Source: a virus. Taken from it: a stretch of 17,903 bases of DNA. Position 1 is the first letter of the stretch. Each line of letters begins with the position of its first letter. Shown here piece by piece: positions 1 to 16,288 of this stretch. The notes under the pieces are model-generated. The model was not told where the DNA came from and did not search any database. It saw nothing but the letters and a program-made list of their open reading frames with translations. Where the stretch lies: UHGV virus genome UHGV-1371914. One strand, 5' to 3'. The position numbers and the translations under genes are program-made.

Positions 1-123
1 GTGTCTGTGCCCCCCTATCATGTGACAAAGATCACCCCCATTTTGGTCTATTTGTGTGGTACATCACATGAATTCGCTTGACAATGTTCACCTAATGTGG
101 TAGGTCGGCGGTAGGGCACATTA

Positions 124-161
124 ATAAGCGGTCCTATTGTCAGTACAATAGGGCCGCTTAT
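124..161. repeat. Imperfect 16-bp-arm palindrome inside the ITR (ataagcggtcctattg / tcagta / caatagggccgcttat)
   Basis: Arms 124-139 and 146-161 are reverse complements except for one t/c position, which would be a G-U wobble as RNA. The loop is 6 nt. It lies upstream of the candidate ITR promoter. Confidence 0.6.
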
Positions 162-204
162 GTTAGGACATATGTTGCTGTGTTTTAGTTCACACGTTTT
201 CGGG

Positions 205-236
205 TTGACTGTCGGAGAACTGCGGTGCATTATTAA
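205..236 (+). promoter_or_regulatory. Candidate early promoter inside the left ITR (-35 TTGACT 205-210, 17-nt spacer, -10 CATTAT 228-233 / TATTAAT 231-237)
   Basis: Sigma-70-like hexamers with 17-nt spacing, about 45 nt upstream of the GGAAGGA RBS at 271-277. A perfect TTGACA also sits at 78-83 but without a good -10. Confidence 0.3.
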
Positions 237-283
237 TACACGAACGGGGCGGGGTTAGCCCGCTGGGAATGGAAGGAACTGAG

Positions 284-586
284 ATGACATCACAAAGGGC
301 TAAGGAGACACTGAATAGGTTTCACTATGCATCTCTTTCTCAACAATCGTCATATATTAATCCGAGAATTGTATACAAACTCAAGATTCTTAATGCTACA
401 ATTACACCTAAGTTGCACACATTTCGGGCTTCAGTTCCCGGATATTATGTGGAATGGTTTTACAACTCGGCCACTGCCACATACATGTATATTTCAGGAG
501 CAATTAATGGGGTGGTATTCATGGATCAAGGCGACCTTGATTCATTGTGTGACGAATTAGAACGAATGTTTAGCTACAATATTTAG
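284..586 (+). CDS. Hypothetical early protein (100 aa; alternative start ATG 269 gives 105 aa)
   Basis: ORF track 269..586. ATG 284 has a GGAAGGA RBS at 271-277 with 6-nt spacing. The region is AT-rich. No motif recognised. Confidence 0.45.
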   Translation: MTSQRAKETLNRFHYASLSQQSSYINPRIVYKLKILNATITPKLHTFRASVPGYYVEWFYNSATATYMYISGAINGVVFMDQGDLDSLCDELERMFSYNI

Positions 587-852: not shown

Positions 853-1163
853 GTTTTCCGCAAACTTTTAGGGTTAGGAAATACAATAACGCCCTAGGTT
901 ATAGAACACACAATGTGCTTCGATACGAAACAACTGATACACACACATTTGTTTATCGGATGATGCGAAGTATTGAAGAGGTTGTTATTAGAGTAACAGA
1001 CTCAGATATTGTTGCACAAAACGATCGACTAGGGGCCTTTAAGTACAAGCATTTCCCTTCACACATTCCGATCCATAAAGTTGTGTGCGAGATGCTCACT
1101 AAACCGAATTCATTGGTTGTCCTAGACGACAATCCTGAATCGGTTGAGCAACCACTATTTTAG
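801..1163 (+). CDS. Hypothetical early protein (120 aa as called; start uncertain, overlaps previous ORF by 52 nt)
   Basis: ORF track. GGGAG 793-797 is close to ATG 801. No internal ATG with an SD was found. No motif recognised. Confidence 0.3.
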   Translation: MDVVDCMPHFYCDGHVVSFPQTFRVRKYNNALGYRTHNVLRYETTDTHTFVYRMMRSIEEVVIRVTDSDIVAQNDRLGAFKYKHFPSHIPIHKVVCEMLTKPNSLVVLDDNPESVEQPLF

Positions 1164-1229
1164 ATTCCCGGCTGGACGGGTAATACCAGAACTGAAATGA
1201 AATCTAGCCATACACGAAAGGAAACTATC

Positions 1230-1595
1230 ATGGCTGTTGTTTATTCTTCTCTTTCTGACGATTTCGCTGGCAAGAAGGCTTTTTTCACTGCTCAGAATTC
1301 TGCTGTTTCTTTCAAGGAACTGCGTGGCAAGACGATTGAGATCAAGGACATCGTCATTACTGAGGATGATGTGGTCGACACGGACACTGGTGAGGTTGAG
1401 ACGCGGCGTGCGATCACGGTGATTGACAAGGACGGAAAGGCTTATGGCACTTCGTCTCAGACGGTGGGTGCTCAGATTCAGCGGCTTGTGGATATTCTGG
1501 GTGACGTTAAGTCGTGGTCCGAGCCCGTGGTTGTTGAGATCGGTACTGCCAAGTCCGGGCGTGGTCGCGAGTACACGACGGTGACTCTGGCCTGA
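1230..1595 (+). CDS. Single-stranded DNA-binding protein, phi29 p5-like (121 aa from ATG 1230; track ORF begins 1197)
   Basis: AAGGAAA RBS before ATG 1230. From my memory of phi29 p5, blocks FFTAQNSAVSFKEL, AITVIDKDGKAYGTSSQTV and VVVEIGTAKSGRGREYTTVTL resemble p5 blocks IFNAQTGGGQSFKNL, TTIFAADGSLYSAISKTV and VKVVQGTSSKGNVFFSLQL. It lies immediately upstream of the TP and pol genes, as gene 5 does in phi29. Confidence 0.55.
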   Translation: MAVVYSSLSDDFAGKKAFFTAQNSAVSFKELRGKTIEIKDIVITEDDVVDTDTGEVETRRAITVIDKDGKAYGTSSQTVGAQIQRLVDILGDVKSWSEPVVVEIGTAKSGRGREYTTVTLA

Positions 1596-1618
1596 GTGTC
1601 CTTGTAGGATAGTGATTG

Positions 1619-1654
1619 CCCCCTGCCCCTTAGGGGGCAGGGGGTGTCTGTTTT
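1619..1654 (+). terminator. Rho-independent terminator / attenuator after SSB gene (stem ccccctgcccc / ggggcaggggg, loop ttag, then tgtctgtttt)
   Basis: Perfect 11-bp GC-rich stem 1619-1629 / 1634-1644 followed by a U-rich tract 1645-1654. Confidence 0.65.
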
Positions 1655-2720
1655 GGTTAAGTCTCATTGGGGTAAGCATTATCGTTCGTTTAAGCGTGGC
1701 GCTAAACATGCTCGGAATACGGCGAGTGAGATTAGGTCTTTTGTTGGTGGCCTTGATTTTAATCCGCTCCCTGATACTTTATCTGAGGAACAGGGTAAGG
1801 TTAAGGTTAAGTCGGCGAAGACTAGCGCCCGTGAGAAGCATCGTTCGGACCTGGATACTGCGCGTGAGATGCTTCAGGTTGAGCGCGATAGGGCGATTCG
1901 GAAGATGCGTCGGATGGCGACTAGTGACGATGGTGCTGACATTCGTGGTACTAAGTTTGATCCTTTGGGGAAATCGGCTGTTGGAAGGGTGACTTTGAAG
2001 AATGCTGCGCGGGAACTTGAGCGCCTTAGTGAGTTTAATAATTCTAATAGTGTTTGGTACTATAGTGACCGTAAAGGTAATCCCATTTCTGCTAAAGACG
2101 TTCGTCGTTATCGTGATGCTGTGCGACGCTATAATGAGGACATAGAAGCATACGAACGCTCTGTGGCGGGGACTAAGTTGCCTTATATGGGTGACGTTAC
2201 CGTGGGTGATTGGATTAGAGATTTTCGCCCCTCACGATCTTATTTGCCTGGCGGTTCACATTATGCACTTGAGAGAATGAATCCCGATAAGCGAACTGTG
2301 AATTTCGAGTCTGCTGAAGCAATGCGAGAAAAGACTAATAAGGTTCTTGATAGCCTAAGTAAAGCGGCGAAGCAAGAGAAACTTACGGCTGCAAAGCAAC
2401 AGATCGCGGACATGCTTGACGTCATTGGTGACCCAGAACTTTTCGATATTCTTACAGACATTCCTGACGATGTTTTGTGGCTTATGTGGACCGTTAACGG
2501 TGATTTCGCTAATCAGTTGTCTTTGATGTATGAGGCAGCAAAGGAAGGATATTATGATCGCAAGCGGGCAGGTCAGGATATTTGGTATGATGATGTAGAA
2601 GAAGCAAATTCTAGTATTAAGTCTTTGCTTAAAGACTTAAAGGAAGTTAAGATTAAACCGGAGGATGATTTTAGTGGTTCGCCAATCAATAAGCGAAAGG
2701 CCCGGAAGGGCCGTCGCTAG
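1644..2720 (+). CDS. Putative terminal protein (TP) for protein-primed replication (358 aa from GTG 1644; TTG 1653 is a plausible alternative start)
   Basis: Gene immediately upstream of, and overlapping, the protein-primed DNA polymerase gene (the TP-pol arrangement of phi29/Cp-1). Very basic N-terminal region. Third-codon-position bias matches neighbouring genes from 1644 onward. No sequence-level similarity to a known TP could be confirmed by eye. Confidence 0.5.
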   Translation: MSVLVKSHWGKHYRSFKRGAKHARNTASEIRSFVGGLDFNPLPDTLSEEQGKVKVKSAKTSAREKHRSDLDTAREMLQVERDRAIRKMRRMATSDDGADIRGTKFDPLGKSAVGRVTLKNAARELERLSEFNNSNSVWYYSDRKGNPISAKDVRRYRDAVRRYNEDIEAYERSVAGTKLPYMGDVTVGDWIRDFRPSRSYLPGGSHYALERMNPDKRTVNFESAEAMREKTNKVLDSLSKAAKQEKLTAAKQQIADMLDVIGDPELFDILTDIPDDVLWLMWTVNGDFANQLSLMYEAAKEGYYDRKRAGQDIWYDDVEEANSSIKSLLKDLKEVKIKPEDDFSGSPINKRKARKGRR

Positions 2721-4374
2721 GCGTAGCCATAAAAAGGTTCCTTCGTTTTGTGCGGACTTTGAGACGACTACGGTTGAGGATGATTGTCGCGTGTGGTCTT
2801 GGGGTATTATTCAGGTAGGTAAACTGCAGAATTATGTTGACGGCATTTCGATTGATGGCTTTATGTCTCACATTGCCGAAAGAGCCGCACACATTTATTT
2901 CCACAACCTAGCATTTGATGGCACGTTTATTTTGGATTGGCTGCTTAAACACGGATATTGCTGGGTTAAGGAAAATCCTGGGGTAAAAGAATTTACCTCA
3001 CTCATTTCTCGCATGGGAAAGTATTATTCAATTACAGTAGTGTTTGAGACAGGATATCGGGTAGAATTTCGAGACTCATTTAAGAAGCTACCTATGTCCG
3101 TTTCAGCAATCGCCAAGACATTCAATTTACATGACCAGAAACTAGAGATTGATTATGAGAAACCACGCCCAATAGGATATATCCCTACAGAGCAAGAGAA
3201 ACGATATCAGCGGAACGACGTTGCAATTGTTGCTCAAGCGCTCGAAGTTCAGTTTGAAGAGAAGATGACTAAGTTGACGGCGGGTAGTGATTCGCTGGCA
3301 ACATATAAGAAGATGTCTGGAAAACTGTTTATTAGACGGTTTCCGATTCTTTCACCGGAAATAGATACTGAAATTCGGAAAGCATATCGCGGCGGTTTTA
3401 CATATGCTGACCCGCGCTATTCAAAGAAACTGAACGGACAAGGCAGTGTGTATGACGTCAACTCACTTTATCCATCGGTAATGCGAACAGCACTACTCCC
3501 CTATGGTGACCCGATCTATTCTGAAGGGGCACCGAAGACTGATCGACCGCTTTATATTGCTTCTATAACGTTTACAGCGAAACTAAAACCTAATCATATT
3601 CCATGTATCCAAATTAAGAAAAATCTTTCTTTTAATCCCACACAGTATCTTGAAGAAGTAAATGAACCAACTACTGTTGTGGCAACAAATATTGATATTG
3701 AATTATGGAAAAAGCATTATGACTTTAAGATTTATTCATGGAATGGAACGTTTGAGTTTCGGGGATCACATGGTTTTTTCGACACTTATGTCGACCATTT
3801 TATGGAGATTAAGAAAAATAGTACCGGTGGACTAAGGCAAATTGCTAAGTTGCATTTGAACAGCCTTTATGGAAAATTCGCCACTAACCCGGACATCACA
3901 GGAAAACATCCCACACTTAAAGACAATCGCGTTTCACTAGTAATGAATGAACCTGAAATGCGTGATCCTGTTTACACGCCAATGGGCGTGTTTATCACAG
4001 CCTATGCTCGTAAGAAAACTATTAGTGCGGCACAAGATAATTATGAGACATTTGCATATGCTGATACAGACTCACTGCATCTGATTGGGCCTACCACTCC
4101 CCCAGAATCGTTGTGGGTCGATCCGGTAGAACTGGGTGCCTGGAAGCATGAGAGTTCCTTCACAAATTCTGTCTACATTAGGGCGAAGCAATATGCGGAG
4201 GAAATTGATGGTAAACTAGATGTACACATTGCAGGGATGCCGCGCAACGTGGCCGCCACATTGACATTGGGTGACATGTTGACGGGTGGCACTTGGAATG
4301 GTAAACTGATTCCTGTAAGGGTTCCTGGAGGAATAGTCCTCAAGGACACAACATTCACACTCAAGATTGATTAA
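2665..4374 (+). CDS. Protein-primed family-B DNA polymerase, phi29-type (569 aa; alternative start GTG 2674)
   Basis: Exo I FCADFETTT, Exo II YFHNLAFDG, Exo III YQRNDVAIV, motif A YDVNSLYPS, motif B KLHLNSLYGKF, motif C FAYADTDSLHL. Long blocks are near-identical to phi29 pol (RDPVYTPMGVFITAYAR, VRVPGGIVLKDTTFTLK). GGAGG 2660-2664 lies upstream. Confidence 0.95.
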   Translation: MILVVRQSISERPGRAVARRSHKKVPSFCADFETTTVEDDCRVWSWGIIQVGKLQNYVDGISIDGFMSHIAERAAHIYFHNLAFDGTFILDWLLKHGYCWVKENPGVKEFTSLISRMGKYYSITVVFETGYRVEFRDSFKKLPMSVSAIAKTFNLHDQKLEIDYEKPRPIGYIPTEQEKRYQRNDVAIVAQALEVQFEEKMTKLTAGSDSLATYKKMSGKLFIRRFPILSPEIDTEIRKAYRGGFTYADPRYSKKLNGQGSVYDVNSLYPSVMRTALLPYGDPIYSEGAPKTDRPLYIASITFTAKLKPNHIPCIQIKKNLSFNPTQYLEEVNEPTTVVATNIDIELWKKHYDFKIYSWNGTFEFRGSHGFFDTYVDHFMEIKKNSTGGLRQIAKLHLNSLYGKFATNPDITGKHPTLKDNRVSLVMNEPEMRDPVYTPMGVFITAYARKKTISAAQDNYETFAYADTDSLHLIGPTTPPESLWVDPVELGAWKHESSFTNSVYIRAKQYAEEIDGKLDVHIAGMPRNVAATLTLGDMLTGGTWNGKLIPVRVPGGIVLKDTTFTLKID

Positions 4375-4385
4375 GGTTGGTAATC

Positions 4386-4553
4386 ATGGCACGTCCCGTT
4401 TCTACTCATGCGACCACTAAGTTCCGTCTCAGCAAGGCTGTTCTCGCGGACCTTGAGGAGATGCACTGGACTCTCCGCAAGGATGTTTCGCAGATTGTTG
4501 AGGAAGCCCTTGTCGACTATATCGCTAAGAATGCTCCCAAGTCTGGTAAGTAA
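4386..4553 (+). CDS. Small ribbon-helix-helix (Arc/CopG-like) DNA-binding protein, putative transcriptional regulator (55 aa; below the ORF-track size cutoff)
   Basis: ATG 4386 to TAA 4551-4553. Translation MARPVSTHATTKFRLSKAVLADLEEMHWTLRKDVSQIVEEALVDYIAKNAPKSGK fits the RHH pattern: a beta-strand with alternating residues (KFRLS) followed by two helices. Compare Arc FNLRWPREVLDLVRKVAEENGRSVNSEIYQRVMESF. Confidence 0.45.
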   Translation: MARPVSTHATTKFRLSKAVLADLEEMHWTLRKDVSQIVEEALVDYIAKNAPKSGK

Positions 4554-4651
4554 TTCTTGACCGAATGCGAGGAAGCATCCTAATGAACTGGGCCTTGCTC
4601 GGTTGGGCAGCAACCCTCAGGATTGCTTTCAGATAATTGGGTATTGTGGTA

Positions 4652-4684
4652 GGCTAGGGGCGTAGGCCCCTAGCCACCATTTTA
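4652..4684 (+). terminator. Hairpin at the early/late junction (stem ggctaggggc / gcccctagcc, loop gtag, then accatttt); terminator-like
   Basis: Perfect 10-bp stem 4652-4661 / 4666-4675 followed by a T-run 4680-4683. Located 15 nt upstream of the scaffold-gene RBS. Confidence 0.5.
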
Positions 4685-4698
4685 TGATTGGAGGAAAT

Positions 4699-5541
4699 AT
4701 GGCACTTTCTGACGCTGAGAAGAATGCGCTTAAAGGGCTGAACCCAGATGGTTCCCTGATGAATGAGTCGCAGCGCAAGGCCAATAAGGCTAAGGTCGAC
4801 GCGAAGAATGCCGAGTCCGCTAAGAAGGACAAGGCCGAGCATGGCGGGCGCTCTCTGACCGAGCGGCGCACCGAGGGTGACCCGCAACAGTCTATGGATG
4901 ACGCTCAGACACGAAATAAGGCGGCCCAGAACCTCACGCCGCAGCAGCGCGAGGAATCCGGGATGACCGGTAATGATGTTTTCGATCCGGGCGATTCCGA
5001 CGGAGACAAAAAGGCTGTTTCCCCCGATGACGGGAACATGCTGGAAGGCGCCCCTAAGGACCCTGCGGACGTAGATCATTTCAAGGATACTAAGGCGGCT
5101 TGGAAGCATCTCACGGACGTGTTTGGTGAAAAGGTTTCTGCCTTACAGGCGGAACTTGAGAATCGGCTTGGCGACCAACTTACTCCGACGGACAGGGAGA
5201 CGGGGAATCCGTTTGCTGGGGGCGACGTTCCGGCGTCGAAGGAGATGACGCTGGATGATGTTAAGGAAGCCGCTCAGAGCACGAAGGATGATGCTAAGGC
5301 GGTGCTCAAGGGCGTTGGCGATGTTGGCGGCGCCGCTGTCGAACTAGGTGGCACCGCAGCGAAGGATGCGGGTAATGCTATAGTGGATGGTATGGGGATC
5401 GACCGTAAGGCGGCCGCTAGCACCGGGAAGACGTTGGCAGGTCTTTCGGGACTATTCTCTAGTAGTGACTCAGGGAATGATAAGGTTCCTGATTCTAATT
5501 GGAAACCTAAGTCAATTAACGAACTTTTTAAGGGGAACTGA
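4699..5541 (+). CDS. Putative head scaffolding protein (280 aa from ATG 4699; track ORF from 4684)
   Basis: GGAGGA RBS 4690-4695. Acidic, low-complexity, predicted-helical Ala/Asp/Lys/Glu-rich protein encoded directly upstream of the major capsid gene. Confidence 0.45.
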   Translation: MALSDAEKNALKGLNPDGSLMNESQRKANKAKVDAKNAESAKKDKAEHGGRSLTERRTEGDPQQSMDDAQTRNKAAQNLTPQQREESGMTGNDVFDPGDSDGDKKAVSPDDGNMLEGAPKDPADVDHFKDTKAAWKHLTDVFGEKVSALQAELENRLGDQLTPTDRETGNPFAGGDVPASKEMTLDDVKEAAQSTKDDAKAVLKGVGDVGGAAVELGGTAAKDAGNAIVDGMGIDRKAAASTGKTLAGLSGLFSSSDSGNDKVPDSNWKPKSINELFKGN

Positions 5542-5543
5542 TT

Positions 5544-6911
5544 ATGCCACAGTTGCAAGACGATACTTCAAACATTGATATTCTTAACGCCATTCGTTCT
5601 GATGCGCGCTACGATTATCAGAACATGGTTCCCGAGGCCACTAAGGCCAATATTCAGGAAACCATTTCGGGCATCATGTCTGACAACATTACTCGAAACG
5701 AATTCATGTCTGCCCTGATTAACCGAATCGGTTCTATCATTGTTCGGGATATTTCCTGGAAGAATCCGCTTGCGGTATTCAAGCAGGGCATGATGTCTTT
5801 CGGTGACACTATCGAGGAAGTGCACCTCGACTTTATTAAGCCCACCATTTATGAGGAGCATCGCGACTATCTTGAGCGTGACGTGTTTGGGCAGGCCCCT
5901 CCCCCGGCTAAGAGTGCTTTCCATACTCTTAACCGTAAGGAGAAGTTTAAGATCACGGTTAACCGTGATGTTATTCGTAGGGCATTCCTTTCGGACAACG
6001 GTCTTTCTGAGATGGTTTCTCAGATTATGTCTGTTGCTGCTTCTTCCGATGAGTGGTCTGAGTTCCTTTACATGACTCGGCTGCTTAAGACTTTCGATGA
6101 TTCGTTCGGATTTTTCCGTATGCAGATCGCGGATCTTAATCAGTTTGAGGTCAATAAGGATAAGGTCGACACAGCGCTTAAGGCTCTGAGGGTTGCCGCG
6201 AACAAAATGATGTATCCGACACCTGCATTTAATTCCGCGGGCGTGCATTCGTTTGCTCGGCCTGAGGACCTGGTGCTTATTGCCACGCCCGAGTTTAAAG
6301 CGAATGTTGACGTGACTTCCCTGGCCGCTGCGTTTAATCGCAGTGACGCCGAGGCCCCGTCGCACATTATCACCGTTCCGGGCGAGGTTATGGGGATGGA
6401 TGACACGTCCGCTATTCTCACTAGCAAGCAATTCTTCGTTATCAAGGACTTGCTGCTTGAGAATCGGAATATTTCCAACCCTGAGGGCCTTTATGATAAC
6501 TACTGGCTGCATCACTGGTCTATTCTGAGCGCCTCACCGTTCACCCCTGCGATTGCGTTCGGCACTAAGCCGAACACGATTGTTGTGACGCCTAAGGATG
6601 AGACGAACGCTGAGATTAATGATATTACGGTGAGTAAGCGAGACGGGTCTAAGTCGTCAATCATGCCTCCCGGCGCCATTCGTCAGGCTGATATTGTGTG
6701 GAAGACTAAGCCTGCCAATAATGGTTATGCTACGGATTGGTATCTTAAGAATTCTAAGTCTAAGGCAACTAAGGTTAGCAACGATGGTGTTATCACTATC
6801 GGCGCTGATGAGCCCGAGGGATATCTTACTCTTGGTGTGAATGTCGACACTAAGGGACCGAACGGCAATAAGCCGGTGAATAAGGAGATCACTATTCAGA
6901 TTAAGAAGTGA
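5544..6911 (+). CDS. Major capsid protein (455 aa) with C-terminal Ig-like (Big_2-type) domain
   Basis: AAGGGGA RBS. Size close to phi29 gp8 (448 aa). Position between the scaffold and the tail/portal genes. C-terminal ~100 aa (about nt 6600-6908) has the beta-rich Ig-like pattern VVTPKD...ITVSKRDGS...VWKTKP...ITIGADEPEGYLTLGVNV. Confidence 0.6.
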   Translation: MPQLQDDTSNIDILNAIRSDARYDYQNMVPEATKANIQETISGIMSDNITRNEFMSALINRIGSIIVRDISWKNPLAVFKQGMMSFGDTIEEVHLDFIKPTIYEEHRDYLERDVFGQAPPPAKSAFHTLNRKEKFKITVNRDVIRRAFLSDNGLSEMVSQIMSVAASSDEWSEFLYMTRLLKTFDDSFGFFRMQIADLNQFEVNKDKVDTALKALRVAANKMMYPTPAFNSAGVHSFARPEDLVLIATPEFKANVDVTSLAAAFNRSDAEAPSHIITVPGEVMGMDDTSAILTSKQFFVIKDLLLENRNISNPEGLYDNYWLHHWSILSASPFTPAIAFGTKPNTIVVTPKDETNAEINDITVSKRDGSKSSIMPPGAIRQADIVWKTKPANNGYATDWYLKNSKSKATKVSNDGVITIGADEPEGYLTLGVNVDTKGPNGNKPVNKEITIQIKK

Positions 6912-6923
6912 TTTAATCAGTGT

Positions 6924-6955
6924 AGAACCGGGCGCCTCATTAGGTGCCCGGTTCT
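6924..6955 (+). terminator. Intergenic hairpin after capsid gene (13-bp stem with one G-U, loop tcatta); weak U-tract, probably a partial terminator or RNA stabiliser
   Basis: Arms 6924-6936 / 6943-6955 seen directly. Downstream is tgctatactt, not a strong U-run. Confidence 0.35.
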
Positions 6956-6970
6956 GCTATACTTGAGACC

Positions 6971-9175
6971 ATGGAGGATGCTATGTCTGAGATTTATTCT
7001 ATGCCCCCTGAGACGCGCGCGGGTTTGTCATTTGATTATTCTGTATGGTCTGCTGGCAGTGTCATTACGATGGTTAATGTTCCTTTTGACAATTCATATC
7101 GGGATATTGTTGATTGGGAGGCGTATGGTCACACTCCGTATGCTTATGTCAAGTCTTTTAACAACCTGCATAAGGTTGAGATTAATCAGATGACCTACCT
7201 TGCACAGGGTAAGCCGATTCGTATTCCTACGCCTTTCACTAAGGCGAATCAATATAACTATGTGATGGTTGAAAATCCTGGCAGGCCCGTTAATTCGGTT
7301 GCCTTCGAGGGTTATACTCCGTCGGTGTTTTTCTATTTCATTACGAGCATTGACTACATTGCGCCCAACACTACACAGTTGACACTTCAACTTGATGTTT
7401 GGACAACGTATTATCAGAAAATCAATTTCGGTCGTAGTTACCTTGAGCGTGGGCATATGGGTATTTGCGCAACCGACTCATTTGACAACTACGGAAAGAA
7501 TTGGTTGACGCAGCCAGAGGGCCTAGACCTTGGTTCTGAGCACCAGATTATGCGTACGTATCGTCGAATGCTTGCGGACGTAAATAATTTTGATTTTGTT
7601 GTAGTAATCACTTCAACCACAAACCTGGATAATGTAAATGGGTATGGAAGTGCCGATGACCCTAAGGTGTCAATGGCCGATTCATCTAAGGTTGAAGGCC
7701 TCCCTAACGGAACCAATATTTATGCATGCACTAGCCTTGAGTTTAGGAAGGGTATGGGGGGCCTAAGGTTTGTTCCGTGGGTTGCTCAAGGGATTGGGTC
7801 GATCACTATTGTACCTAAAGACGTGGTTGACTTAAATGCTGGCAATAAGGTTAATGTTGGTCAAGGAGCGGAAACGGGTAAGTGGACATATCTTTCTGAA
7901 AATAGTGTTTATATTAATCGCGACTACTCTCTGAATGATGCTAATTTTAGAAATGAATTGCTTTCCCTGCTTCCGGCAGAGTATCGTCAGTTGAAGAAAT
8001 TCGTTACATCACCGTATTGCATTGTTGAGTTGACTACCTATGCAGGGAATCCTGTTGAGTTTCGTCCTGAGTCTATTCGGACGGCCGGCATTAACATTCA
8101 GCAGTATGTGCATATTGCTCCGCCTAACCCTTCACTATTCTTCACGATTAAGGACTATAACACGATTACTGAGTCTGTTATTGTTGAGCGACGTTCAGGC
8201 AAGGTGACTAATGAATATGGTGAAGGCTGGGATATGTGTACTGGCTACACCTCGCTACCCACATTCTCGGCAGTAAACAATGCTGCGCTAAACGCCCTTG
8301 CCGGTTCGGCGCATACAACGGCGGCACAGATTAACAACGCGAAGTGGCAGCAACAGCGCGCGCAGCGCGCGGCGTCGTCGGCGCGTGACGTTGCTAATGC
8401 GGGGATTGCTGCCACTCAGGCTGGTGCCGAGAATAGTATGTGGGGGAATTCTGCGATGGCAGATTCTCAGTCGCGATACAATAATATGCGGGCGACCGTT
8501 CAGGCCGCGCAGGGCGGGATTACTGCGCTGGGTGGTGTGATGGGGCTTAACGGGCAGGCGGCGGGCGCCGGGATTGCTCAGGCGGCTACGGCTGGCGTTA
8601 ATGCTATGATTTCTAATTCTCAGGCTCAGTCTACTGCGAATATTCAGAATCAGTTGGCTAGTGGCGCGTCTCAGATTTCTCAGCAACAGCAAAGGACCGT
8701 TCGTGATACGAACTATGAGATGGCTCAGTTTGCTGCAAACGGGGACTATGAGGCGGCTATTGCCTCGATTAATGGTCAGCGTCAGGATATGCAGGTTATT
8801 CCGCCGTCTGTCGTTGGTCAGACGTCTGGGTACGTGTCTGCGATGGTTTCTCAGGGGCTTGTGATTGATGGGAGGATTAGGTTTCTTTCACCTAACGCGA
8901 TGCGTTCGGTTGGCGATTTCTGGTTGCGCTACGGTTATTTGATGAATGTTTGGATTAAGATGCCCAATAAACTTTCATTGATGACTGAGTTCACGTATTG
9001 GAAATTGGTTGAGTGCTACTTGGTTGACACGTTTATCCCTGAGGGATTCAAGTCAACTGTTCGTGGTATTTTTGAAAAGGGTGTTACTGTGTGGCGTTCT
9101 CCGCAGAGAATTGGTAACACTAACATTAGAAACAATAAGATCGACAAAACGGTTAGGGTGACCCTTGGTGGCTAA
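6971..9175 (+). CDS. Putative tail knob / distal tail tube protein (phi29 gp9-like by position), about 735 aa; start ATG 6971 or 6983
   Basis: Track ORF 6944..9175, but 6944 lies inside the hairpin. GGAGGA 6973-6978 precedes ATG 6983. Large structural ORF immediately upstream of the portal gene, as gene 9 is in phi29. Contains an Ala/Gln/Gly-rich insertion at nt ~8280-8700. Confidence 0.45.
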   Translation: MEDAMSEIYSMPPETRAGLSFDYSVWSAGSVITMVNVPFDNSYRDIVDWEAYGHTPYAYVKSFNNLHKVEINQMTYLAQGKPIRIPTPFTKANQYNYVMVENPGRPVNSVAFEGYTPSVFFYFITSIDYIAPNTTQLTLQLDVWTTYYQKINFGRSYLERGHMGICATDSFDNYGKNWLTQPEGLDLGSEHQIMRTYRRMLADVNNFDFVVVITSTTNLDNVNGYGSADDPKVSMADSSKVEGLPNGTNIYACTSLEFRKGMGGLRFVPWVAQGIGSITIVPKDVVDLNAGNKVNVGQGAETGKWTYLSENSVYINRDYSLNDANFRNELLSLLPAEYRQLKKFVTSPYCIVELTTYAGNPVEFRPESIRTAGINIQQYVHIAPPNPSLFFTIKDYNTITESVIVERRSGKVTNEYGEGWDMCTGYTSLPTFSAVNNAALNALAGSAHTTAAQINNAKWQQQRAQRAASSARDVANAGIAATQAGAENSMWGNSAMADSQSRYNNMRATVQAAQGGITALGGVMGLNGQAAGAGIAQAATAGVNAMISNSQAQSTANIQNQLASGASQISQQQQRTVRDTNYEMAQFAANGDYEAAIASINGQRQDMQVIPPSVVGQTSGYVSAMVSQGLVIDGRIRFLSPNAMRSVGDFWLRYGYLMNVWIKMPNKLSLMTEFTYWKLVECYLVDTFIPEGFKSTVRGIFEKGVTVWRSPQRIGNTNIRNNKIDKTVRVTLGG

Positions 9176-10139
9176 AAGAGATTTTGTTAAGCACGGCATT
9201 TACAATAAAGTCATGCTTGCGCCGGCCTCTTCGTCGGAGGCGCGGCAAATGCAGTTGGAGCATATGTACCGAAAGCAATTGATGGGAAAGTGTCTATCTC
9301 GGTTTACTTGGGAGGGACTGCCTAATGGGATTGACCCCCGGTTTATTGAAGCAACCATTTTCAATAACGGATACTCAGTTTTCTATTACGATAGTTTCTT
9401 CGAGTTATTCATGGCGATGCCCGCCACAATTTCCGGTCCGCTGGACATTCAAGATAACCCTACTGGATATCGCATCTCGAGGAATGGTGTCTATTCTCGT
9501 GAGGTGAAGGCATCGGAAAGTGTGTGCATTTGGGGCAATCAGATTCGTGAGCCAGAGATCGACGTTGTTCTATCATATGCTGCCAGACTTGCGCAAATTG
9601 ACAGAACAATTGAGATCGACTTACTTAACGAACGCAACCCGATGATCGTTGCTTGCACGCAGGATCAACGCCTCACCATTCAGAACCTCATTTCCAAGAT
9701 TTATGATGGTGAGCCTGTCGTCTGGGGAACTGAGAATCTGAGCATGGATAATCTCGCTAACACCATTGGAGTGTTTCCGCTCAATCAGAACGCTGGAACG
9801 GGCGCTGTGTCTTCCATTAAGCATATGGAATCCAAGGCCAAGGTTTGGGGTGAGGCGCTTACAATGCTTGGGATTATGAATGTCAATTCTGAGAAGCGTG
9901 AGCGCATGGTGGTTGAGGAAGCCGCCGCAAATTCCGGTCAGGTGCTTGCGTCTCGTGAGTCTTTCATGAAGCCGCGTGAACTTGCGTGCGAACAGATTAA
10001 TGATATGTTTGGTTTGCAGGTTTCGTGTTCCTGGGCCGTCGATGATAACGCAACGCCTAATCTTAATGACTATCTCACTACTTCAAATCTAACAACTTAT
10101 GGAGGGGAAGATGGCACTAACAACGATAATGCTTCGTGA
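9165..10139 (+). CDS. Portal (head-tail connector) protein, phi29 gp10-like (324 aa, GTG start)
   Basis: From memory of phi29 gp10: FTWEGLPNGIDPRFIEATIFNNGYSVFYYD resembles [30 protein letters not shown], and VWGEALTMLGIMNVNSEKRERMVVEEAAANSGQ...PRELACEQINDMFGLQV resembles [33 protein letters not shown]...SREEACEKINELYGLNV. Confidence 0.85.
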   Translation: MVAKRDFVKHGIYNKVMLAPASSSEARQMQLEHMYRKQLMGKCLSRFTWEGLPNGIDPRFIEATIFNNGYSVFYYDSFFELFMAMPATISGPLDIQDNPTGYRISRNGVYSREVKASESVCIWGNQIREPEIDVVLSYAARLAQIDRTIEIDLLNERNPMIVACTQDQRLTIQNLISKIYDGEPVVWGTENLSMDNLANTIGVFPLNQNAGTGAVSSIKHMESKAKVWGEALTMLGIMNVNSEKRERMVVEEAAANSGQVLASRESFMKPRELACEQINDMFGLQVSCSWAVDDNATPNLNDYLTTSNLTTYGGEDGTNNDNAS

Positions 10140-10827
10140 TGTTGTCAAGTTAACTGGTGACCATATCGGACTTGATGACTATCCGATATTTGATGAGGCA
10201 TATCGACAGATTCTTAATGATAAAATCAAGAAGACCTATTGGCTTCAAGAGATTGCTCATGAGACAGTAGATATCTTTATCTGGCGACTTTCGCTTAAAA
10301 TGTCTCTGATTATGCCCCGGTATAACCGGATGTATCTCGCCGAACTGCAAAACACCGACCCTTTGGACGGCAATCGCCACTACAGCCGCACCGGCCAGGA
10401 CGGTAGGAGCCAGAATTCTGGGGTCAATCACCAGACTGGTAGTGGTAGTGGTACCAATAAGTCTAAGGGCCGTACGGTGGGTTCCGACACTCCTCAGACG
10501 CGGCTTGCGGGTGATGGGGACTATGCTACGAGTATCAGTGATGCGTCGACGTCCGGTGACACAACGTCGCGTAATGAGTCGGATAGCACGTCATCGTCTA
10601 CGAGTAATTACACGAATAATCAGAATTCTGAGTCGTGGGGTTACTCTGGCTCTAAGGCGCGGGCTATTGCTGACTATCGCAGCACGCTACTGAATGTTGA
10701 TGACTTGGTTATTGCCGAACTGAGTGAGTTGTTTATGGGGATTTGGGACGGAGACGCTCCGCATACGCCGGGCGGGCTTTATAATGGATACAGTTTTGGA
10801 ATCGGAGGATATTATGGCTACTGGTGA
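10111..10827 (+). CDS. Putative lower collar / tail adaptor protein (238 aa from ATG 10111; track ORF from 10099)
   Basis: GGAGGGG RBS 10101-10107. Position between portal and appendage genes, as gp11 in phi29. Contains a Ser/Thr/Asn/Gly-rich disordered segment. No motif-level confirmation. Confidence 0.35.
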   Translation: MALTTIMLRDVVKLTGDHIGLDDYPIFDEAYRQILNDKIKKTYWLQEIAHETVDIFIWRLSLKMSLIMPRYNRMYLAELQNTDPLDGNRHYSRTGQDGRSQNSGVNHQTGSGSGTNKSKGRTVGSDTPQTRLAGDGDYATSISDASTSGDTTSRNESDSTSSSTSNYTNNQNSESWGYSGSKARAIADYRSTLLNVDDLVIAELSELFMGIWDGDAPHTPGGLYNGYSFGIGGYYGYW

Positions 10828-12289
10828 CGACATTATCGGCTCCATTGATCGCGCTCTATGGCGCGTTCAGTCTAGGAACATTAACAATGTAACCCCGTTT
10901 ACGTATCGCGATGGGCTTACGTATACTGACGTGCTTGAGCGGATTCGCGGCAGCGTCATTGACGTCATTGAATTCGTTAGCAAGTTCGGTGATGAGCAAG
11001 ACAAGATTATTGCCAAACTTAATGAGACGGTAAACAACTTCATTACTGAGGTTGAGAAGACACACTCAGGTTGGAATAAGGAACTGGACACAAAGAAGAC
11101 CGCGCTCGAGTCGCTAATCGAAGACTTCAAGCGCCGCCTTATTGATGCCGAATTCCGTGAGGTTGACGGCAACTATATTGAAGCGCCACTTAAGTCGCCT
11201 GCCGGTAAGCGGGTTACGCTCACAACTAAGGCGTGGGGAGATGCGCTAAATGCCCAGAATTCTCAGTTTCAGACAGAGATTCAGGAGAAACTGGCCCAGC
11301 AGCGTAGGGACTTCGACAATCGTTTCCCGGCCTACTACACGAAGGTCGAGGCTAACGACATCTTCCTCGAGGACCCTAAACTCACTGAGGGCGTAGTCAT
11401 TGGGTCATCTAATGCCACGATTGAAGCAAGCCGCTGGACCGAGACTCTGTGTCGTGAGTTGGGACTTAACCCTAATGTGTACGCAATTGGTGGTGGCGGG
11501 TTTACTTCAACGTCCGATAATAATTTCCTGACACAGTTGGATAATGCTAAGCAAGGAATGTCTGAGGATAAGCGCCGCAGAACTAAATACCTATTCGTGA
11601 TCGACCTACTGAACGATATTCGAGCACAGAATTCTGTGGGAGACAAGGCGGCAACCTTTTTCAGGCTTGCCCGCCAGTACTTCCCTAACGCGGATATTCG
11701 CGTGCTTCCGGTCATCTTTAATGAGTCCTCACTGAATGAGTATGTTCAGATGGCGCGGTCCTGTGTATCTCGCACATTCGAGGTCGTTAATGCCGGCAAG
11801 CCCTATGGGGCCGTTGTCTGCGAAGGTTCTCGCGGTTGGGTGCATTGGGGTGACGAGCAAGCCAAGTCCTGGGACCAAGGGCCGGATAATGTTCATATGA
11901 CCGCATCGGGGTATACGCATATTAAGGAACTGTTTGAGGTTTGGCTCAAGGGCGGCTCGAGTTGGTTTAACCCTCCGGCGATGGCACTGCATACACTATC
12001 TGACGGTACTGTGGCGAAGGACTATAACTATCTCACGTGCGAACGCGACAGAGATTGGGTTTATATTCAAGGAACATTCAAAATTGGAACAAATAACGTA
12101 GGATACGATGGTCGACTAATGAGCATCCCCGGATGGGCGCGCCCCTACGACGGTGTTATGTCTCCCATTATTGGAAATGACAGAACATACAAATATCTAT
12201 ATGTCGCTAAGACTGGAGGAATTTACGCAGGAGACATTCTCTCCGCAAACCAGACCTACCAAGTGAACATGACCTACAAAATCTGGTGA
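10814..12289 (+). CDS. Tail appendage / fibre protein with N-terminal coiled-coil and central SGNH (GDSL-like) esterase domain (491 aa from ATG 10814; track ORF from 10724)
   Basis: GGAGGA RBS 10804-10809. SGNH blocks in order: I VVIGSSNA (Ser), II YAIGGGGF (Gly), III VIDLLND (Asn), V DNVH (Asp-x-x-His), spanning about nt 11380-11960. Position corresponds to phi29 gene 12. Confidence 0.55.
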   Translation: MATGDDIIGSIDRALWRVQSRNINNVTPFTYRDGLTYTDVLERIRGSVIDVIEFVSKFGDEQDKIIAKLNETVNNFITEVEKTHSGWNKELDTKKTALESLIEDFKRRLIDAEFREVDGNYIEAPLKSPAGKRVTLTTKAWGDALNAQNSQFQTEIQEKLAQQRRDFDNRFPAYYTKVEANDIFLEDPKLTEGVVIGSSNATIEASRWTETLCRELGLNPNVYAIGGGGFTSTSDNNFLTQLDNAKQGMSEDKRRRTKYLFVIDLLNDIRAQNSVGDKAATFFRLARQYFPNADIRVLPVIFNESSLNEYVQMARSCVSRTFEVVNAGKPYGAVVCEGSRGWVHWGDEQAKSWDQGPDNVHMTASGYTHIKELFEVWLKGGSSWFNPPAMALHTLSDGTVAKDYNYLTCERDRDWVYIQGTFKIGTNNVGYDGRLMSIPGWARPYDGVMSPIIGNDRTYKYLYVAKTGGIYAGDILSANQTYQVNMTYKIW

Positions 12290-12299
12290 GTAGACAGGA

Positions 12300-12342
12300 A
12301 TAGCCTGCCCCGATAGAATTGGGGCAGGCTATTTCTGTGTGG
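12300..12342 (+). terminator. Hairpin terminator/attenuator between fibre and tail-lysin genes (stem atagcctgcccc / ggggcaggctat, loop gatagaatt, then ttctgtgt)
   Basis: Perfect 12-bp stem 12300-12311 / 12321-12332 followed by a U-rich tract. Confidence 0.5.
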
Positions 12343-12349
12343 AGGAACT

Positions 12350-13654
12350 ATGGCGTGGGACGCAACAGCAAAGAAAGTTGCGATTAAGGCTATTGGTCAG
12401 GTTGAGTCATCTATGGACTACTCGGCAATCAACTACAATGACCCGATTACTGTGGGGATTGCTCAGTGGTATGGCACTCGTGCGGCGGCAATTCTTAACA
12501 GAATGCGTGGAGCACACTCTGCGGAATACGCGCGTGTCGATAGTGGGTTTAGGTCCCGACTTGAATCTGTTCCCGAGTCTGATTCGTCCTGGAACACCTA
12601 CTATCTTTCTCGCGGCGTTGGCGATAGTCTTAAGCCATTGCTTAATGCGAGCAAGGATATTCAGGGTGACCAGATTGTCAAGGACCTTGAAAACTATTTC
12701 ACTGTCGCTAAACAATATGGGATTAATCCTGACACGGACACCGACGCCTTTATCTTATGGTGTGTTGCTTACCATCAAGGCCCGCGATATGCATTGCAGG
12801 CGGCAAACCACTATTCCGGTAGCGGTCTTGAAGAGATGTATTCTGACATCATGGCTAACGGCGTTCTAGGCAGATACGGCAATAGGTATTCTCAAGCTAA
12901 AAACATCATTGCCGGCAAAGACACTAGCGGCGTTGGCGAAGGCGGCATTAGTGCAAACACTCCCGGTAATGGTGGGAGCGTTGGACAGAATGGTCAGGCA
13001 GTAAACGTGTCTGGCGGAAAACTAATTATCAGTGCTGACGACTCAGGAATTCTCACTCTAAGGTCAAAATTTGGTAATTACCAAATGTACTCCCACGGGC
13101 ACAATCTGTGGGAAGTAAACCTCAAAGACATCCAAGAGAAAATCGTCGGACAAAGCCCGCAAGCGAACGCCGGTGGGGGAGGCGGCGGAGGCGGCGCCCC
13201 TGCCCCAGGCGGCTCGGGTAAAGGTGCGGCAGCACTCGCATGGGTAATGTCCCGGTTGGGTAAATTTGCCTACTGCCAGTGTCCTGGCAGGCAGGACCCT
13301 GACAACTCGGGTATCACTGATTGTTCGGGGTTGATGTACGCAGCCTACATGGCCACTTCAAACACGTTCGTAGGCACTTGGACAGGTGACCAGTACTTCC
13401 GTGGGGCTGAGCCGTTCCCTCGCCGTGGCGGGGCTATGACGGCCGCTGAGCGCTCCCAGTTGCGGCCAGGGGACATGATCGTCATGGCCTGGAAGTCAAC
13501 GGGCAGTTACTATCCTGAAACTGACCATGTAGAAATGGTTGTGGACTCGAATACACTTGTAGGACATGGTGGTAATCCCCACTATGGGCCCGTCACAAAA
13601 TCTATTGATATTCTCGCCGGCACGCGTTGGTGGACAGTAAGGCGTCATGAATGA
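12350..13654 (+). CDS. Tail-associated peptidoglycan hydrolase, phi29 gp13-like: N-terminal lysozyme-like domain + Gly-rich linker + C-terminal NlpC/P60 endopeptidase (434 aa)
   Basis: GGAGGA RBS 12341-12346. From memory of gp13: N-terminal GQVESSMDYSAINYNDPITVGIAQW resembles the gp13 N-domain GNMQSESTINPG...GLVQW. Linker GGGGGGGGAPAPGGSGKG. C-terminal NlpC/P60 signature ITDCSGLMYAAY (Cys) with downstream His in TDHVEM / GHGGNPH. Confidence 0.7.
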   Translation: MAWDATAKKVAIKAIGQVESSMDYSAINYNDPITVGIAQWYGTRAAAILNRMRGAHSAEYARVDSGFRSRLESVPESDSSWNTYYLSRGVGDSLKPLLNASKDIQGDQIVKDLENYFTVAKQYGINPDTDTDAFILWCVAYHQGPRYALQAANHYSGSGLEEMYSDIMANGVLGRYGNRYSQAKNIIAGKDTSGVGEGGISANTPGNGGSVGQNGQAVNVSGGKLIISADDSGILTLRSKFGNYQMYSHGHNLWEVNLKDIQEKIVGQSPQANAGGGGGGGGAPAPGGSGKGAAALAWVMSRLGKFAYCQCPGRQDPDNSGITDCSGLMYAAYMATSNTFVGTWTGDQYFRGAEPFPRRGGAMTAAERSQLRPGDMIVMAWKSTGSYYPETDHVEMVVDSNTLVGHGGNPHYGPVTKSIDILAGTRWWTVRRHE

Positions 13655-14646
13655 AAAAGAAATTCTCATACTATAGTTTCTCTAAGGTTCTATCTTATGC
13701 TGGTGTCTTTAATATGATTATGGGCGCCCGTGGCCTTGGTAAAACTTATGGTGCCAAAAAGATTGTGATTAAGAATGCAATCAATAAGGGGCAGCAATTC
13801 ATTTATCTCCGTCGATACAAGACAGAACTCAAGGGCCGCAACAGTTTCTTTGCTGATATTCAGCACGAATTCCCTGATGAGGAATTCCGCGTTGAAGGGC
13901 AGTATGCGCAGCGTAAGGTTGGGAAGAAATGGGAGACCATCGGATATTTTATTCCGCTTTCTACGGCGCAAGCAAATAAGTCTATTGCGTATCCGAATGT
14001 TTATACAATCATTTTTGATGAATTCATTATCGACAAGGGTTCACTCCGGTATCTCCCTGATGAGGCGAAAGTATTTATGGACTTTTACTCAACAGTAGAC
14101 CGTTACCAAGATAGAGTGCGTTGCCTAATGCTTTCCAATGCGGTCAGCATTATGAACCCCTATTTCATTCGATTCCACATAGAACCTAAGGAAGGAATTA
14201 GCCGTCACGCTGATGGATTTATCGTTACCGATTTCGTCAACAGTGAGCAATTCCAATCGGAAGTGGCACACACTCGATTTGGTTCATTCGTCACAAACTA
14301 TGCTGAGGACTACGCTGACTACTCTATCTCAAACAAATTCGCCGACAACTATGACGACTTTGTCATGAAAAAGACAGGAAAAGCAAAATACGCATTCTCC
14401 CTCCGGTGCCCCGAGGGCGAGGTCTCTATCTGGATCGACGGCGGCACGTGGTTCGCCCAGCGTCGCCAGCCCCGCGGGGATAGGGTAAGATGGGCCTATA
14501 GGGTCACAGACCTGAGAGAAGGTGAGCGGCTCCTCGTGTACGGGGACAAAGTACTCAGCATCATGCGGAGCACCTACCGGAAAGGTCGACTTTTCTCTGA
14601 CTCTCCTGAGACTCGAAACATGTTCGCTGAAATCTTTGTCCGATAA
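13651..14646 (+). CDS. DNA encapsidation (packaging) ATPase, phi29 gp16-like (331 aa)
   Basis: Walker A GARGLGKT near the N-terminus. Walker B hhhhDE as TIIFDEF. Size matches phi29 gp16 (332 aa) and the gene sits at the end of the late operon. ATGAATGA overlap with the upstream gene. Confidence 0.8.
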   Translation: MKKKFSYYSFSKVLSYAGVFNMIMGARGLGKTYGAKKIVIKNAINKGQQFIYLRRYKTELKGRNSFFADIQHEFPDEEFRVEGQYAQRKVGKKWETIGYFIPLSTAQANKSIAYPNVYTIIFDEFIIDKGSLRYLPDEAKVFMDFYSTVDRYQDRVRCLMLSNAVSIMNPYFIRFHIEPKEGISRHADGFIVTDFVNSEQFQSEVAHTRFGSFVTNYAEDYADYSISNKFADNYDDFVMKKTGKAKYAFSLRCPEGEVSIWIDGGTWFAQRRQPRGDRVRWAYRVTDLREGERLLVYGDKVLSIMRSTYRKGRLFSDSPETRNMFAEIFVR

Positions 14647-14951
14647 TGATACACATTAACCCCACCACAATTGACGTTGCCCTAATCCTTGCCATCGTAT
14701 CCCTGGTAACAATTGCAGGGAGATTCATTTATCGTGCCACACGATTCATGGATCACCTAGCAACAATGCTAGACGCGTGGGACGGAAAAGACGGGACACC
14801 TGGCGTCCTGGACCGGCTTGAAGATATTGAAAACAAACTAAAAGACGTGCAATATCACGTCAAACCAAACCACGGCGGCTCAAGCGTTGACGCACAGAAC
14901 CGCCAACTACGAGAAATCATTTCCTATCTTAAGGAGAAAAACAATGGGTGA
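14646..14951 (+). CDS. Small membrane protein in the lysis cassette (101 aa; one N-terminal TM helix IDVALILAIVSLVTIAG, helical C-terminus); holin-like or antiholin candidate
   Basis: TAATG overlap with the ATPase stop. Hydrophobic segment seen in the translation. Sits immediately upstream of the holin and endolysin genes. Confidence 0.45.
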   Translation: MIHINPTTIDVALILAIVSLVTIAGRFIYRATRFMDHLATMLDAWDGKDGTPGVLDRLEDIENKLKDVQYHVKPNHGGSSVDAQNRQLREIISYLKEKNNG

Positions 14952-15144
14952 GCACGAGTCCCTCAAGCCTCCCTTTATTCCCGACGCATACCGGCTGTGG
15001 GCTTACATCGTCAGTGTTGGCGTCCTCGTATGTCTTGGTGTATGGGGCGTTATTGACGGTGACAAGATTTCCGCCCTTAATTTCCTGTTCGCCGCATTCT
15101 TCGGAGTCGCCGCAAACAATGTCCCCCGAGGAAAGGCATCCTAA
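14944..15144 (+). CDS. Holin, class II-like (66 aa, two TM segments LWAYIVSVGVLVCLGVWGVI and ISALNFLFAAFFGVAA)
   Basis: AAGGAG RBS 14931-14936 with 7-nt spacer to ATG 14944 (track ORF from 14887). Two hydrophobic helices. Immediately upstream of the endolysin gene with a TAATG overlap. Confidence 0.6.
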   Translation: MGEHESLKPPFIPDAYRLWAYIVSVGVLVCLGVWGVIDGDKISALNFLFAAFFGVAANNVPRGKAS

Positions 15145-15959: not shown

Positions 15960-15964
15960 TAAAC

Positions 15965-16006
15965 AGTTAATCCCCGGAAGGAACCAACCACTTCCGGGGA
16001 TTAACT
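15965..16006. terminator. Convergent (bidirectional) terminator: perfect 16-bp stem agttaatccccggaag / cttccggggattaact with 10-nt loop
   Basis: Arms 15965-15980 / 15991-16006. An A-tract upstream on + gives a U-tract for the - strand transcript. Sits between the end of the + late operon (15959) and the end of the - right-arm operon (16013). Confidence 0.6.
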
Positions 16007-16012
16007 ATGTCC

Positions 16013-16288
16013 TCACATATCAAGTGCTGTCAAATCAACTCCAATCGACTCGAGACATTCATAATAGAATTCGCGGCATTTCTCTCCGCCGTTGTGTCCG
16101 AAACGCTTAATAGTGTTTTGTCCTGTCAACTTATCTGAAAATATCACGCGGTTATCCGGCCAGCCATAAACGTCAAGACGATAATCGTCACCGTCAATCA
16201 GAATGCGAGTACACCTAACCACGATATTATATCCTGGGAGTTGGTCTACCAGATTAAGTTTCTTAGCGAATTCGCTGAAATGATACAT
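16013..16288 (-). CDS. Hypothetical right-arm early protein (91 aa)
   Basis: ORF track. GGGGGT SD upstream. TAATG overlap with the upstream gene, consistent with translational coupling. AT-rich. No motif recognised. Confidence 0.45.
   Translation of the reverse strand: MYHFSEFAKKLNLVDQLPGYNIVVRCTRILIDGDDYRLDVYGWPDNRVIFSDKLTGQNTIKRFGHNGGEKCREFYYECLESIGVDLTALDM

Follow-up and report, generated by a model that had tools for sequence, protein, structure and literature searches.

The viral genome UHGV-1371914 (17,903 bp; the whole stretch is referred to here as the window) is the complete linear genome of a phi29-like, protein-primed podovirus related to the Actinomyces naeslundii phage Av-1, and its two ends are identical in inverted orientation to within one nucleotide of the start codons of two unrelated first genes. 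We consider it likely that both ends carry a conserved cassette for inward early expression, and that sequence exchange from end to end copies the termini as far as the end of this cassette, at the ATG. The feature is real and is explained, and it is a modest variant of the arrangement found in phages Cp-1 and Av-1 rather than a new kind of system.

Extent of the terminal repeat and the elements within it

When positions 1-400 of the window were compared with the reverse complement of the right end, 282 of 282 nucleotides proved identical, such that a left inverted terminal repeat (ITR; 1-282, plus strand) and a right one (17622-17903, minus strand) occupy the extreme ends of the linear genome. 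A terminal repeat of this kind lies far beyond chance, and its outermost sequence, GTGTCTGTGCCCCCC, is common to the window, the termini of the Av-1 isolate and relatives from the IMG/VR database. The first difference between left and right falls at 283 (mirror 17621), where the left end has G and the right end A; the site is polymorphic family-wide (G in 53, A in 9 and C in 3 of 65 leaders), and the relative 054192 shows the identical G/A difference between its own ends. The ATG that follows matches at both ends (284-286, mirror 17618-17620), and past it the left/right identity falls to 12 of 60 positions (20%) over 287-346. The 'arms 1-286, 100%' returned by the repeat finder is a rounding of 285/286, and the matching ATGs are two start codons equidistant from one common Shine-Dalgarno site, outside the unbroken repeat. 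An initial annotation of this DNA had placed the ITR boundary exactly at the start codon; homology does reach the ATG, but unbroken identity stops at 282, with the mismatch at 283. The same phage is also found in an independent human oral metagenome assembly (European Nucleotide Archive, ENA, ERZ964592), and this assembly, built with k=127, stops at window position 156, exactly 127 nt outside the point of divergence, as is expected if the 127-mer at 156-282 truly occurs at both ends.

The inner portion of the repeat holds a series of elements directed inward. The -35 box of the putative early promoter, TTGACT (205-210, plus strand; mirror 17694-17699, minus strand), was located by consensus scan, and the Av-1 record has a -35 signal at the homologous place. 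After a spacer of 17 nt comes the best -10 hexamer, CATTAT (228-233), within a -10/start-site block of near-invariant columns, gTGCATTATTAATACAyGAAC (225-246, plus strand; mirror 17658-17679, minus strand). Inward pairs of the form TTGACT-17-CATTAT are found at mirrored positions, both inside the left/right homology, as are the early promoters of Cp-1, and the sequence would place the start of transcription at about 240-246 and at the mirror of these positions. Downstream lies a hairpin of the 5' untranslated region, GCGGG-GTTAG-CCCGC (249-263, plus strand; mirror 17641-17655, minus strand), recovered in the minimum-free-energy and centroid structures and by covariation, in which G249-G253 pair with C259-C263 around the loop GTTAG, with an optional G248-U264 wobble extension. 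A role for this hairpin as an intrinsic terminator or attenuator was considered and rejected: the stem at 249-263 is followed by TGGGAATGG, with no T-run, and the terminator scan did not report it. The ribosome-site block GGAATGGAAGGAACTGA (266-282, plus strand; mirror 17622-17638, minus strand) holds the Shine-Dalgarno sequence GGAAGGA (271-277) and is conserved in relatives. Only two copies of this block exist in the window, and no internal copy of the cassette was found within it, the start of the ssb gene having only GAACTGAAATG in common. The -35 box, the -10 hexamer, the hairpin, GGAAGGA and ATG 284 had all been named by the initial annotation and were found where it had put them, as was the mirror arrangement on the minus strand of the right end, with its ATG at 17618-17620; it did not mention ATG 269, also in frame, which falls within the repeat at both ends.

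Behind these signals lie, on the left, a gene of 100 aa beginning MTSQRAKETLNRF (MTSQ..., 284-586, plus strand) and, on the right, one of 77 aa beginning MEAIKTLLGAGA (MEAIK..., 17387-17620, minus strand). Their products are unrelated by BLASTP (E=2.3) and by profile-profile comparison (hhalign probability 0.1%), which bears out the earlier statement that two different terminal proteins stand behind identical inward signals for transcription and translation.

Conservation of the cassette and the recurrent edges of identity

Relatives were drawn from IMG/VR as 160 loci anchored on the polymerase and the packaging ATPase; a landmark search recovered the promoter region at about 45 genome ends, and 65 distinct leaders were collected. 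The pattern TTGACt-N17-gTGCATTATTAATACAtGAAC-GGrGCGG[loop]CCGC-GGGAATGGAAGGAAcTGAgATG turns up repeatedly, on the left as on the right, and an ATG is always its end. All 68 distinct contexts contain the pentamer TTGAC (205-209), as the search was built to require it, the sixth base of the box (210) being variable, and the distance from TTGAC to ATTATTAAT is a constant 19 nt in 65 of the 65 contexts that have this second motif, over a spacer whose sequence varies. In a profile anchored on the -35 box, the box is fixed, the spacer length is constant and the -10/start block is near-invariant. Such a conservation profile is the signature of a real promoter and renders an early promoter credible; the candidate promoter proposed earlier at 205-236 is strengthened by the constant distance and the near-invariant block in relatives. 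When 61 distinct contexts are anchored instead on the ATG, mean pairwise identity is 0.79-1.00 at -18 to -2 (0.73 at -14), 0.69 at -1 and 0.38 over the 30 nt past the ATG.

The leader hairpin is likewise maintained. Across 44 distinct leaders the sequence of both loop and stem varies and pairing is kept, 90.5% of cells being paired where slid controls gave 34-48%; double-sided changes numbered 11, and the observed score was reached by none of 500 shuffles.

The -10 block TGCATTATTAATACA (226-240, mirror 17664-17678) is, as a separate matter, nearly its own reverse complement, with 3 mismatches. Since its conservation exceeds what a -10 hexamer requires, the block may double as an operator for a phage or host regulator.

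The genes that follow the cassette belong to five mutually unrelated families, one of which occurs at either end. The family of the window's right gene accounts for 28 instances, all at right ends, and the MREITIL/MEESIL family for 17, all at left ends; the family of the window's left gene is found at 8 left and 2 right ends, and two smaller families at left ends. A second type of leader, which has no hairpin, stands at the right end of Av-1 and several relatives. In the loci L094, L097, L115 and L133 the cassette occurs once more in the interior, about 450-600 nt from the right end and before a MEAIK-type gene; outside these internal cassettes lie one extra gene and a different leader. As a compact, naturally portable expression unit found before at least five unrelated genes, the cassette could serve Actinomyces genetics.

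Left and right were then aligned in the 16 genomes for which both ends reach the promoter. Strict identity breaks at few, recurrent places, all of them edges of conserved blocks. It breaks just past the -35 box in Av-1 (12 mismatches in 210 nt, then divergence) and in 08745, and at the start of the variable hairpin in 054192, 08433, 06461 and 06333; in 054192 the ends are perfectly matched over 1-249, followed by 9 mismatches in 250-267 and the G/A at 283. It breaks at the ATG in the window (1-282), in 08341 (2 mismatches before the ATG) and in 7000000652_000075. Wherever both ends have the hairpin-type leader, the last 21 nt to the ATG are identical at 17-21 of 21 positions regardless of how well the remainder matches, and homology up to the start codon is, on this comparison of sequences, a property of the conserved ribosome-site block and not of the ITR as such. 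The initial annotation had looked to the ITR boundaries of related genomes for a relation to start codons, and the answer is divided: two further genomes, 08341 and 7000000652_000075, do stop at the ATG, and Av-1, 08745, 054192, 08433 and 06461 stop away from it. No special coupling of the ITR edge to the start codon is left by these results, the cassette being present family-wide at both ends even where the ends differ.

Exchange between the ends and competing explanations

Over the 60 nt upstream of the -35 box, left and right ends have a median identity of 96.7% within a genome vs 76.4% between genomes (Mann-Whitney p=1e-6). Since two ends resemble each other more when they belong to one genome than when they come from different genomes, the exchange between ends is real, and the ends evolve in concert. 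The window is itself instructive, as parts that normally vary (positions -20 to -1 ahead of the -35 box, the spacer of the promoter and the loop of the hairpin) are identical at its two ends, and purifying selection alone would not produce identity of these variable parts. It had been suggested from the outset that homogenisation of the ITRs is bounded by selection on the coding bodies; the homogenisation is upheld by the concerted evolution just described, but its bound is better put as the point at which homology already in place runs out. First genes, too, have changed ends. In L143, L153 and L122 the first gene on the right is a member of the window's left-gene family, and at the right end of L143 (560-625) the left-type gene lies behind a full cassette, with the displaced MEAIK-type gene keeping a degenerate Shine-Dalgarno block, GGAATGGAATGAACCGAGATG. 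In the shifting inner edge of the ITR, close relatives preserve a natural record of how the ends of a protein-primed replicon exchange sequence.

In the mechanism that we would propose, the cassette at each end comprises a sigma-A-type promoter, a leader of about 40 nt with a stem-loop, a strong Shine-Dalgarno block and the start codon (284 on the left). The genome would replicate from both ends by protein priming, and on entry of the DNA the host polymerase would transcribe inward from both termini, starting at about 240-246 and its mirror. The leader would form a stem of 5-6 bp about 6-9 nt from its 5' end, ribosomes would bind GGAAGGA and initiate at ATG 284 (left) and 17620 (right), and the unrelated first proteins of both early operons would in this manner be made from identical initiation signals. 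The outer ~200 bp would be kept alike by end-to-end sequence exchange, for which two routes may be envisaged. Two genome copies could cross over once within their inverted cassettes or ITRs, by which everything terminal to the exchange point would be replaced; heteroduplex repair or mismatch correction, acting on a panhandle that the displaced strand forms, would have the same outcome. Exchange could run through the cassette because the cassette is homologous at both ends, and, limited by the end of homology at the ATG, it would leave recurrent breakpoints. The inner edge of the perfect repeat would then mark the last exchange point, which would have reached 282 in the window and stopped earlier, at other block edges, in relatives. 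As homology stops there, the start codon is the furthest reach of end-to-end copying, not a specially selected boundary.

Several points weigh against this account. The best -10 hexamer, CATTAT, matches the consensus at only 4 of 6 positions, and a promoter scan of 1-1300 returned 3 promoters vs 2.9 expected in shuffles; the putative promoter, its start site and the presumed 'early' timing are suggested by conservation, by the predicted signals in the Av-1 record and by analogy with Cp-1. The folding energy of the leader hairpin is ordinary for its composition (z = -0.08), and with the thermodynamic test non-significant the claim that the hairpin is real rests on covariation. Concerted evolution is weak over the 80-nt cassette itself (81.6% vs 65.1%, p=0.016, n=12). 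The results here do not tell crossover and panhandle repair apart, and the window is a metagenomic contig, in which an assembler could have collapsed interior differences between left and right.

This last point is the substance of one competing explanation, in which the perfect identity is an artefact, short-read assembly having collapsed two similar ends to one consensus. Besides the metagenomic origin of the window, many related contigs end inside the ITR, which indicates that assemblers struggle there, and the isolate genome of Av-1 has its 12 mismatches in 210 nt. Comparable metagenomic contigs, however, keep their left/right differences (10 in 054192, 11 plus gaps in 06333 and 20 in 09956), the end of the k=127 assembly falls exactly 127 nt from the divergence point, and homology to the ATG would stand even if interior single-nucleotide differences had been collapsed; we regard an artefact as improbable. 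We extend no more credence to the version first put forward, in which active homogenisation of the ends goes all the way to the start codon and selection for synchronous, identical signals keeps the boundary there. The promoter, leader and Shine-Dalgarno site are indeed identical in the window, and near-identity to the ATG recurs in the genomes 08341 and 7000000652_000075, but most relatives for which both ends are available have different spacers, hairpins or leader type (Av-1, 08745, 054192, 08433, 06461, 06292 and 09956), and strong concerted evolution is confined to the sequence upstream of the promoter. With the ends of most relatives differing, exact identity is not required and the boundary is untied from the start codon. 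The associated claim of a guaranteed synchronous expression is not sustained either, as the right end of Av-1 and others has a leader of a different type; synchrony is a by-product and not a demonstrated function. It is very improbable that no exchange occurs at all and that strong purifying selection alone has kept the copies of the cassette identical. The -35, -10/start and Shine-Dalgarno blocks are near-invariant across the family, as such selection would have it, yet the spacer, the block upstream of the -35 box and the loop and stem of the hairpin vary between genomes and are identical at the window's two ends, and similarity within genomes exceeds that between them.

The position of the boundary also depends on where translation begins, and a start at ATG 269 (mirror 17635) would put the first five codons, MEGTE, into the repeat and the boundary inside the coding sequence. 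ATG 269 is in frame with ATG 284 at both ends, the G/A at 283 would under this start be synonymous (GAG/GAA), an in-frame ATG is kept at this position by 55 of 65 leaders, and the gene call of the Joint Genome Institute (JGI; P0076, 105 aa) takes it. We nevertheless find such a start improbable. GGAAGGA (271-277) overlaps and lies downstream of ATG 269, and it is placed 6 nt before ATG 284; ACG replaces ATG 269 in at least 6 leaders, and in one a 1-nt deletion breaks the frame; C is also seen at -1, and in one leader TGC precedes the ATG, so that the amino acid would change; and the gene calls in databases are mostly of the 77-aa and 100-aa forms. Public gene calls are on the whole inconsistent (77, 82 or 92-93 aa for the right gene, 100 or 105 aa for the left), and some gene-calling pipelines use the upstream in-frame ATG within the repeat (269-283; 17621-17635). 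These phages abound in the human mouth, and annotations of them should begin both first genes at the ATG that lies 6 nt past GGAAGGA, not at the upstream one.

Returning to exchange through a conserved cassette, a further and more speculative extension, which we hold to be possible though doubtful, is that the cassette acts as a recombination adaptor, crossovers in its conserved blocks shuttling terminal segments, and occasionally whole first genes, between ends and between phages. The five families of first genes, one of them at either end, the duplicated Shine-Dalgarno block at one insertion junction and the breakpoints at block edges are compatible with this reading. Were it correct, the genome ends would be a site at which small early genes (probably for host takeover or anti-defence) are shuffled, and the length of the ITR would be a by-product of the position of the last crossover.

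Comparison with known systems and other features of the genome

Inward early promoters common to both ends of a protein-primed podovirus are already established by Cp-1, a phage of Streptococcus pneumoniae (Salasmaviridae, Cepunavirus) that is, like the window, a protein-primed phi29-like podovirus with early genes directed inward from both ends. The ITR of Cp-1 is annotated at 236 bp, and beyond it left and right remain homologous as far as about 352, with 8 mismatches; one -35 box (222-227) lies inside the annotated ITR and a second promoter also lies within the homology. The annotated start sites are 351 (PE1) and 357 (PE2) on the left and mirror 351 (PE4) and mirror 257 (PE5) on the right, and the first genes begin at 376 and mirror 375. 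In Cp-1, then, homology ends at the start of transcription and the leaders and ribosome sites differ, whereas in the window it extends about 40 nt further, across the structured leader and the Shine-Dalgarno site, and stops 1 nt short of the ATG. Each end of Cp-1 has two promoters in tandem where the window has one clear promoter, and there is no sequence similarity between the termini of the two. The practical consequences of the present findings are modest, and current understanding is not overturned.

The closest isolate is Av-1 (Dybvigvirus Av1, DQ123818.2), which has the same terminal sequence and the same ITR hairpin (described below) as the window. Its left leader is homologous to both leaders of the window, and its record annotates -35/-10 signals at mirrored positions of both ends. 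Unlike that of the window, the ITR of Av-1 is imperfect and stops just past the -35 box, and at the right end its leader is of the other type, lacking the hairpin, and stands before another first gene (ORF A, start at mirror 270). We found no description of the Av-1 termini in the literature searched.

Concerted ends are also familiar from PRD1 and adenovirus, whose linear genomes carry a terminal protein and keep their ITRs identical. For these systems PMC11886824 describes, with reference to Savilahti & Bamford 1993 and Wang et al. 1991, models in which homology of the ITRs is restored through a panhandle of the displaced strand, and which would explain how the ends co-evolve. Direct evidence for the panhandle is lacking even in these model systems (PMC11886824). 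The ITRs of PRD1 and adenovirus are mainly described as origins of replication, whereas the repeat of the window also spans a complete expression cassette and its inner edge varies among close relatives. The Bacillus phage phi29 has virion and replication modules of the same families as the window, but its ITR is 6 bp, AAAGTA (PMC11476376), and an ITR of that length leaves no promoter or leader common to both ends.

The assignment of the window, a metagenomic contig from JGI, to this group is founded on its gene content. It encodes a protein-primed family-B DNA polymerase (PF03175, DNA_pol_B_2; E=3.5e-70) and virion genes of the phi29 type, namely the major capsid protein, tail knob, connector and a gp16-type packaging ATPase. 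From the left end, the plus strand carries small open reading frames (ORFs), ssb, the terminal protein, the polymerase and then the late genes; a short block of small ORFs occupies the minus strand at the right end. Gene order is as in the Av-1 record, with all structural and replication genes in common, and the ORF at 1644-2720, which has no Pfam match of its own, is syntenic with the Av-1 gene annotated 'terminal protein' and lies inside the DNA match. Av-1 (Dybvigvirus) is the nearest catalogued relative, at 78.4% nucleotide identity over window 1149-16316 (71% of the query, megablast), a match that leaves out both window ends. By ICTV convention, a genus requires about 70% nucleotide identity with the type species over the full genome length; the figures for the window and Av-1 (78.4% x 71%) give about 56% overall by megablast, and a more sensitive aligner might raise the coverage.

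Both first genes are conserved in their own right. The left gene is kept in 13 loci and 22 database clusters and the right gene in 52 loci, always in the right arm, and in 75 clusters, such that the latter is near-universal in the phage family; homologues of the first genes were found only on phage contigs of ~17 kb. AlphaFold2 (AF2) models, with pLDDT of 89.5 (left) and 87.1 (right), predict the same order of elements in both proteins, that is, two N-terminal helices, five strands and one C-terminal helix. The distant paralogy that this equal order would suggest found no support in hhalign at the probability given above. Neither gene has a Pfam or PHROG match, and a search of the PDB with both models gave nothing below E=0.07; in BFVD only uncharacterised small phage proteins match, those matching the fold of the right-end protein including two from one podovirus genome (TM 0.71-0.80).

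A scan of the whole window against Rfam (E<=1) gave no packaging RNA (pRNA) and no known leader element. The sole match was to a Burkholderia small RNA model at 4913-4994 (minus strand), inside a plus-strand ORF, at 26 bits vs a gathering score of 80 (E=0.0032), and is probably a chance G+C-rich hairpin. The 'packaging RNA' of the Av-1 GenBank record (Av-1 16295-16402) is homologous to window 16191-16311 (plus strand), which minus-strand ORFs overlap; a comparison of 9 relatives found no conserved secondary structure for this region, with a consensus energy of -4.15 kcal/mol and 0 compensatory pairs. The ITR was also considered as the source of the group's pRNA, and no evidence for this emerged, as the consensus fold of 1-210 supports a single 17-bp hairpin only.

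This hairpin, together with the use of the termini as an exchange zone for small early genes, is to our mind the more interesting residue of the analysis. It lies inside the ITR at 124-161 (mirror 17743-17780), in the form ATAAGCGGTCCTATTGT-cagt-ACAATAGGGCCGCTTAT, and is the sole ITR element with covariation support in the consensus fold. In total 96% of cells are paired vs 30-52% in slid controls, with double-sided changes in 7 pairs and 27 cells, and T-G wobbles favour the strand that runs inward from the terminus (261/272 vs 249/272 paired). No T-run was found on either side of it, and it could be an RNA or else a fold that the displaced DNA strand adopts. Further out, 17 diverse ITRs have in common a second invariant element, TTGACAA (78-84), behind which come a spacer of variable sequence and a semi-conserved TGGTAGGTC (78-106 in all). 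The pattern of conservation is promoter-like, though without a good -10 hexamer, and the element might drive a transcript containing the ITR hairpin. At the very ends, the window starts with GTGTCTGTG on both sides (1-10, 17894-17903) and the Av-1 isolate genome with TGTGTCTGTG. The window probably lacks one terminal T per end, and the repeat TGTGT, lying at the true terminus, would be suited to initiation with a sliding-back step.

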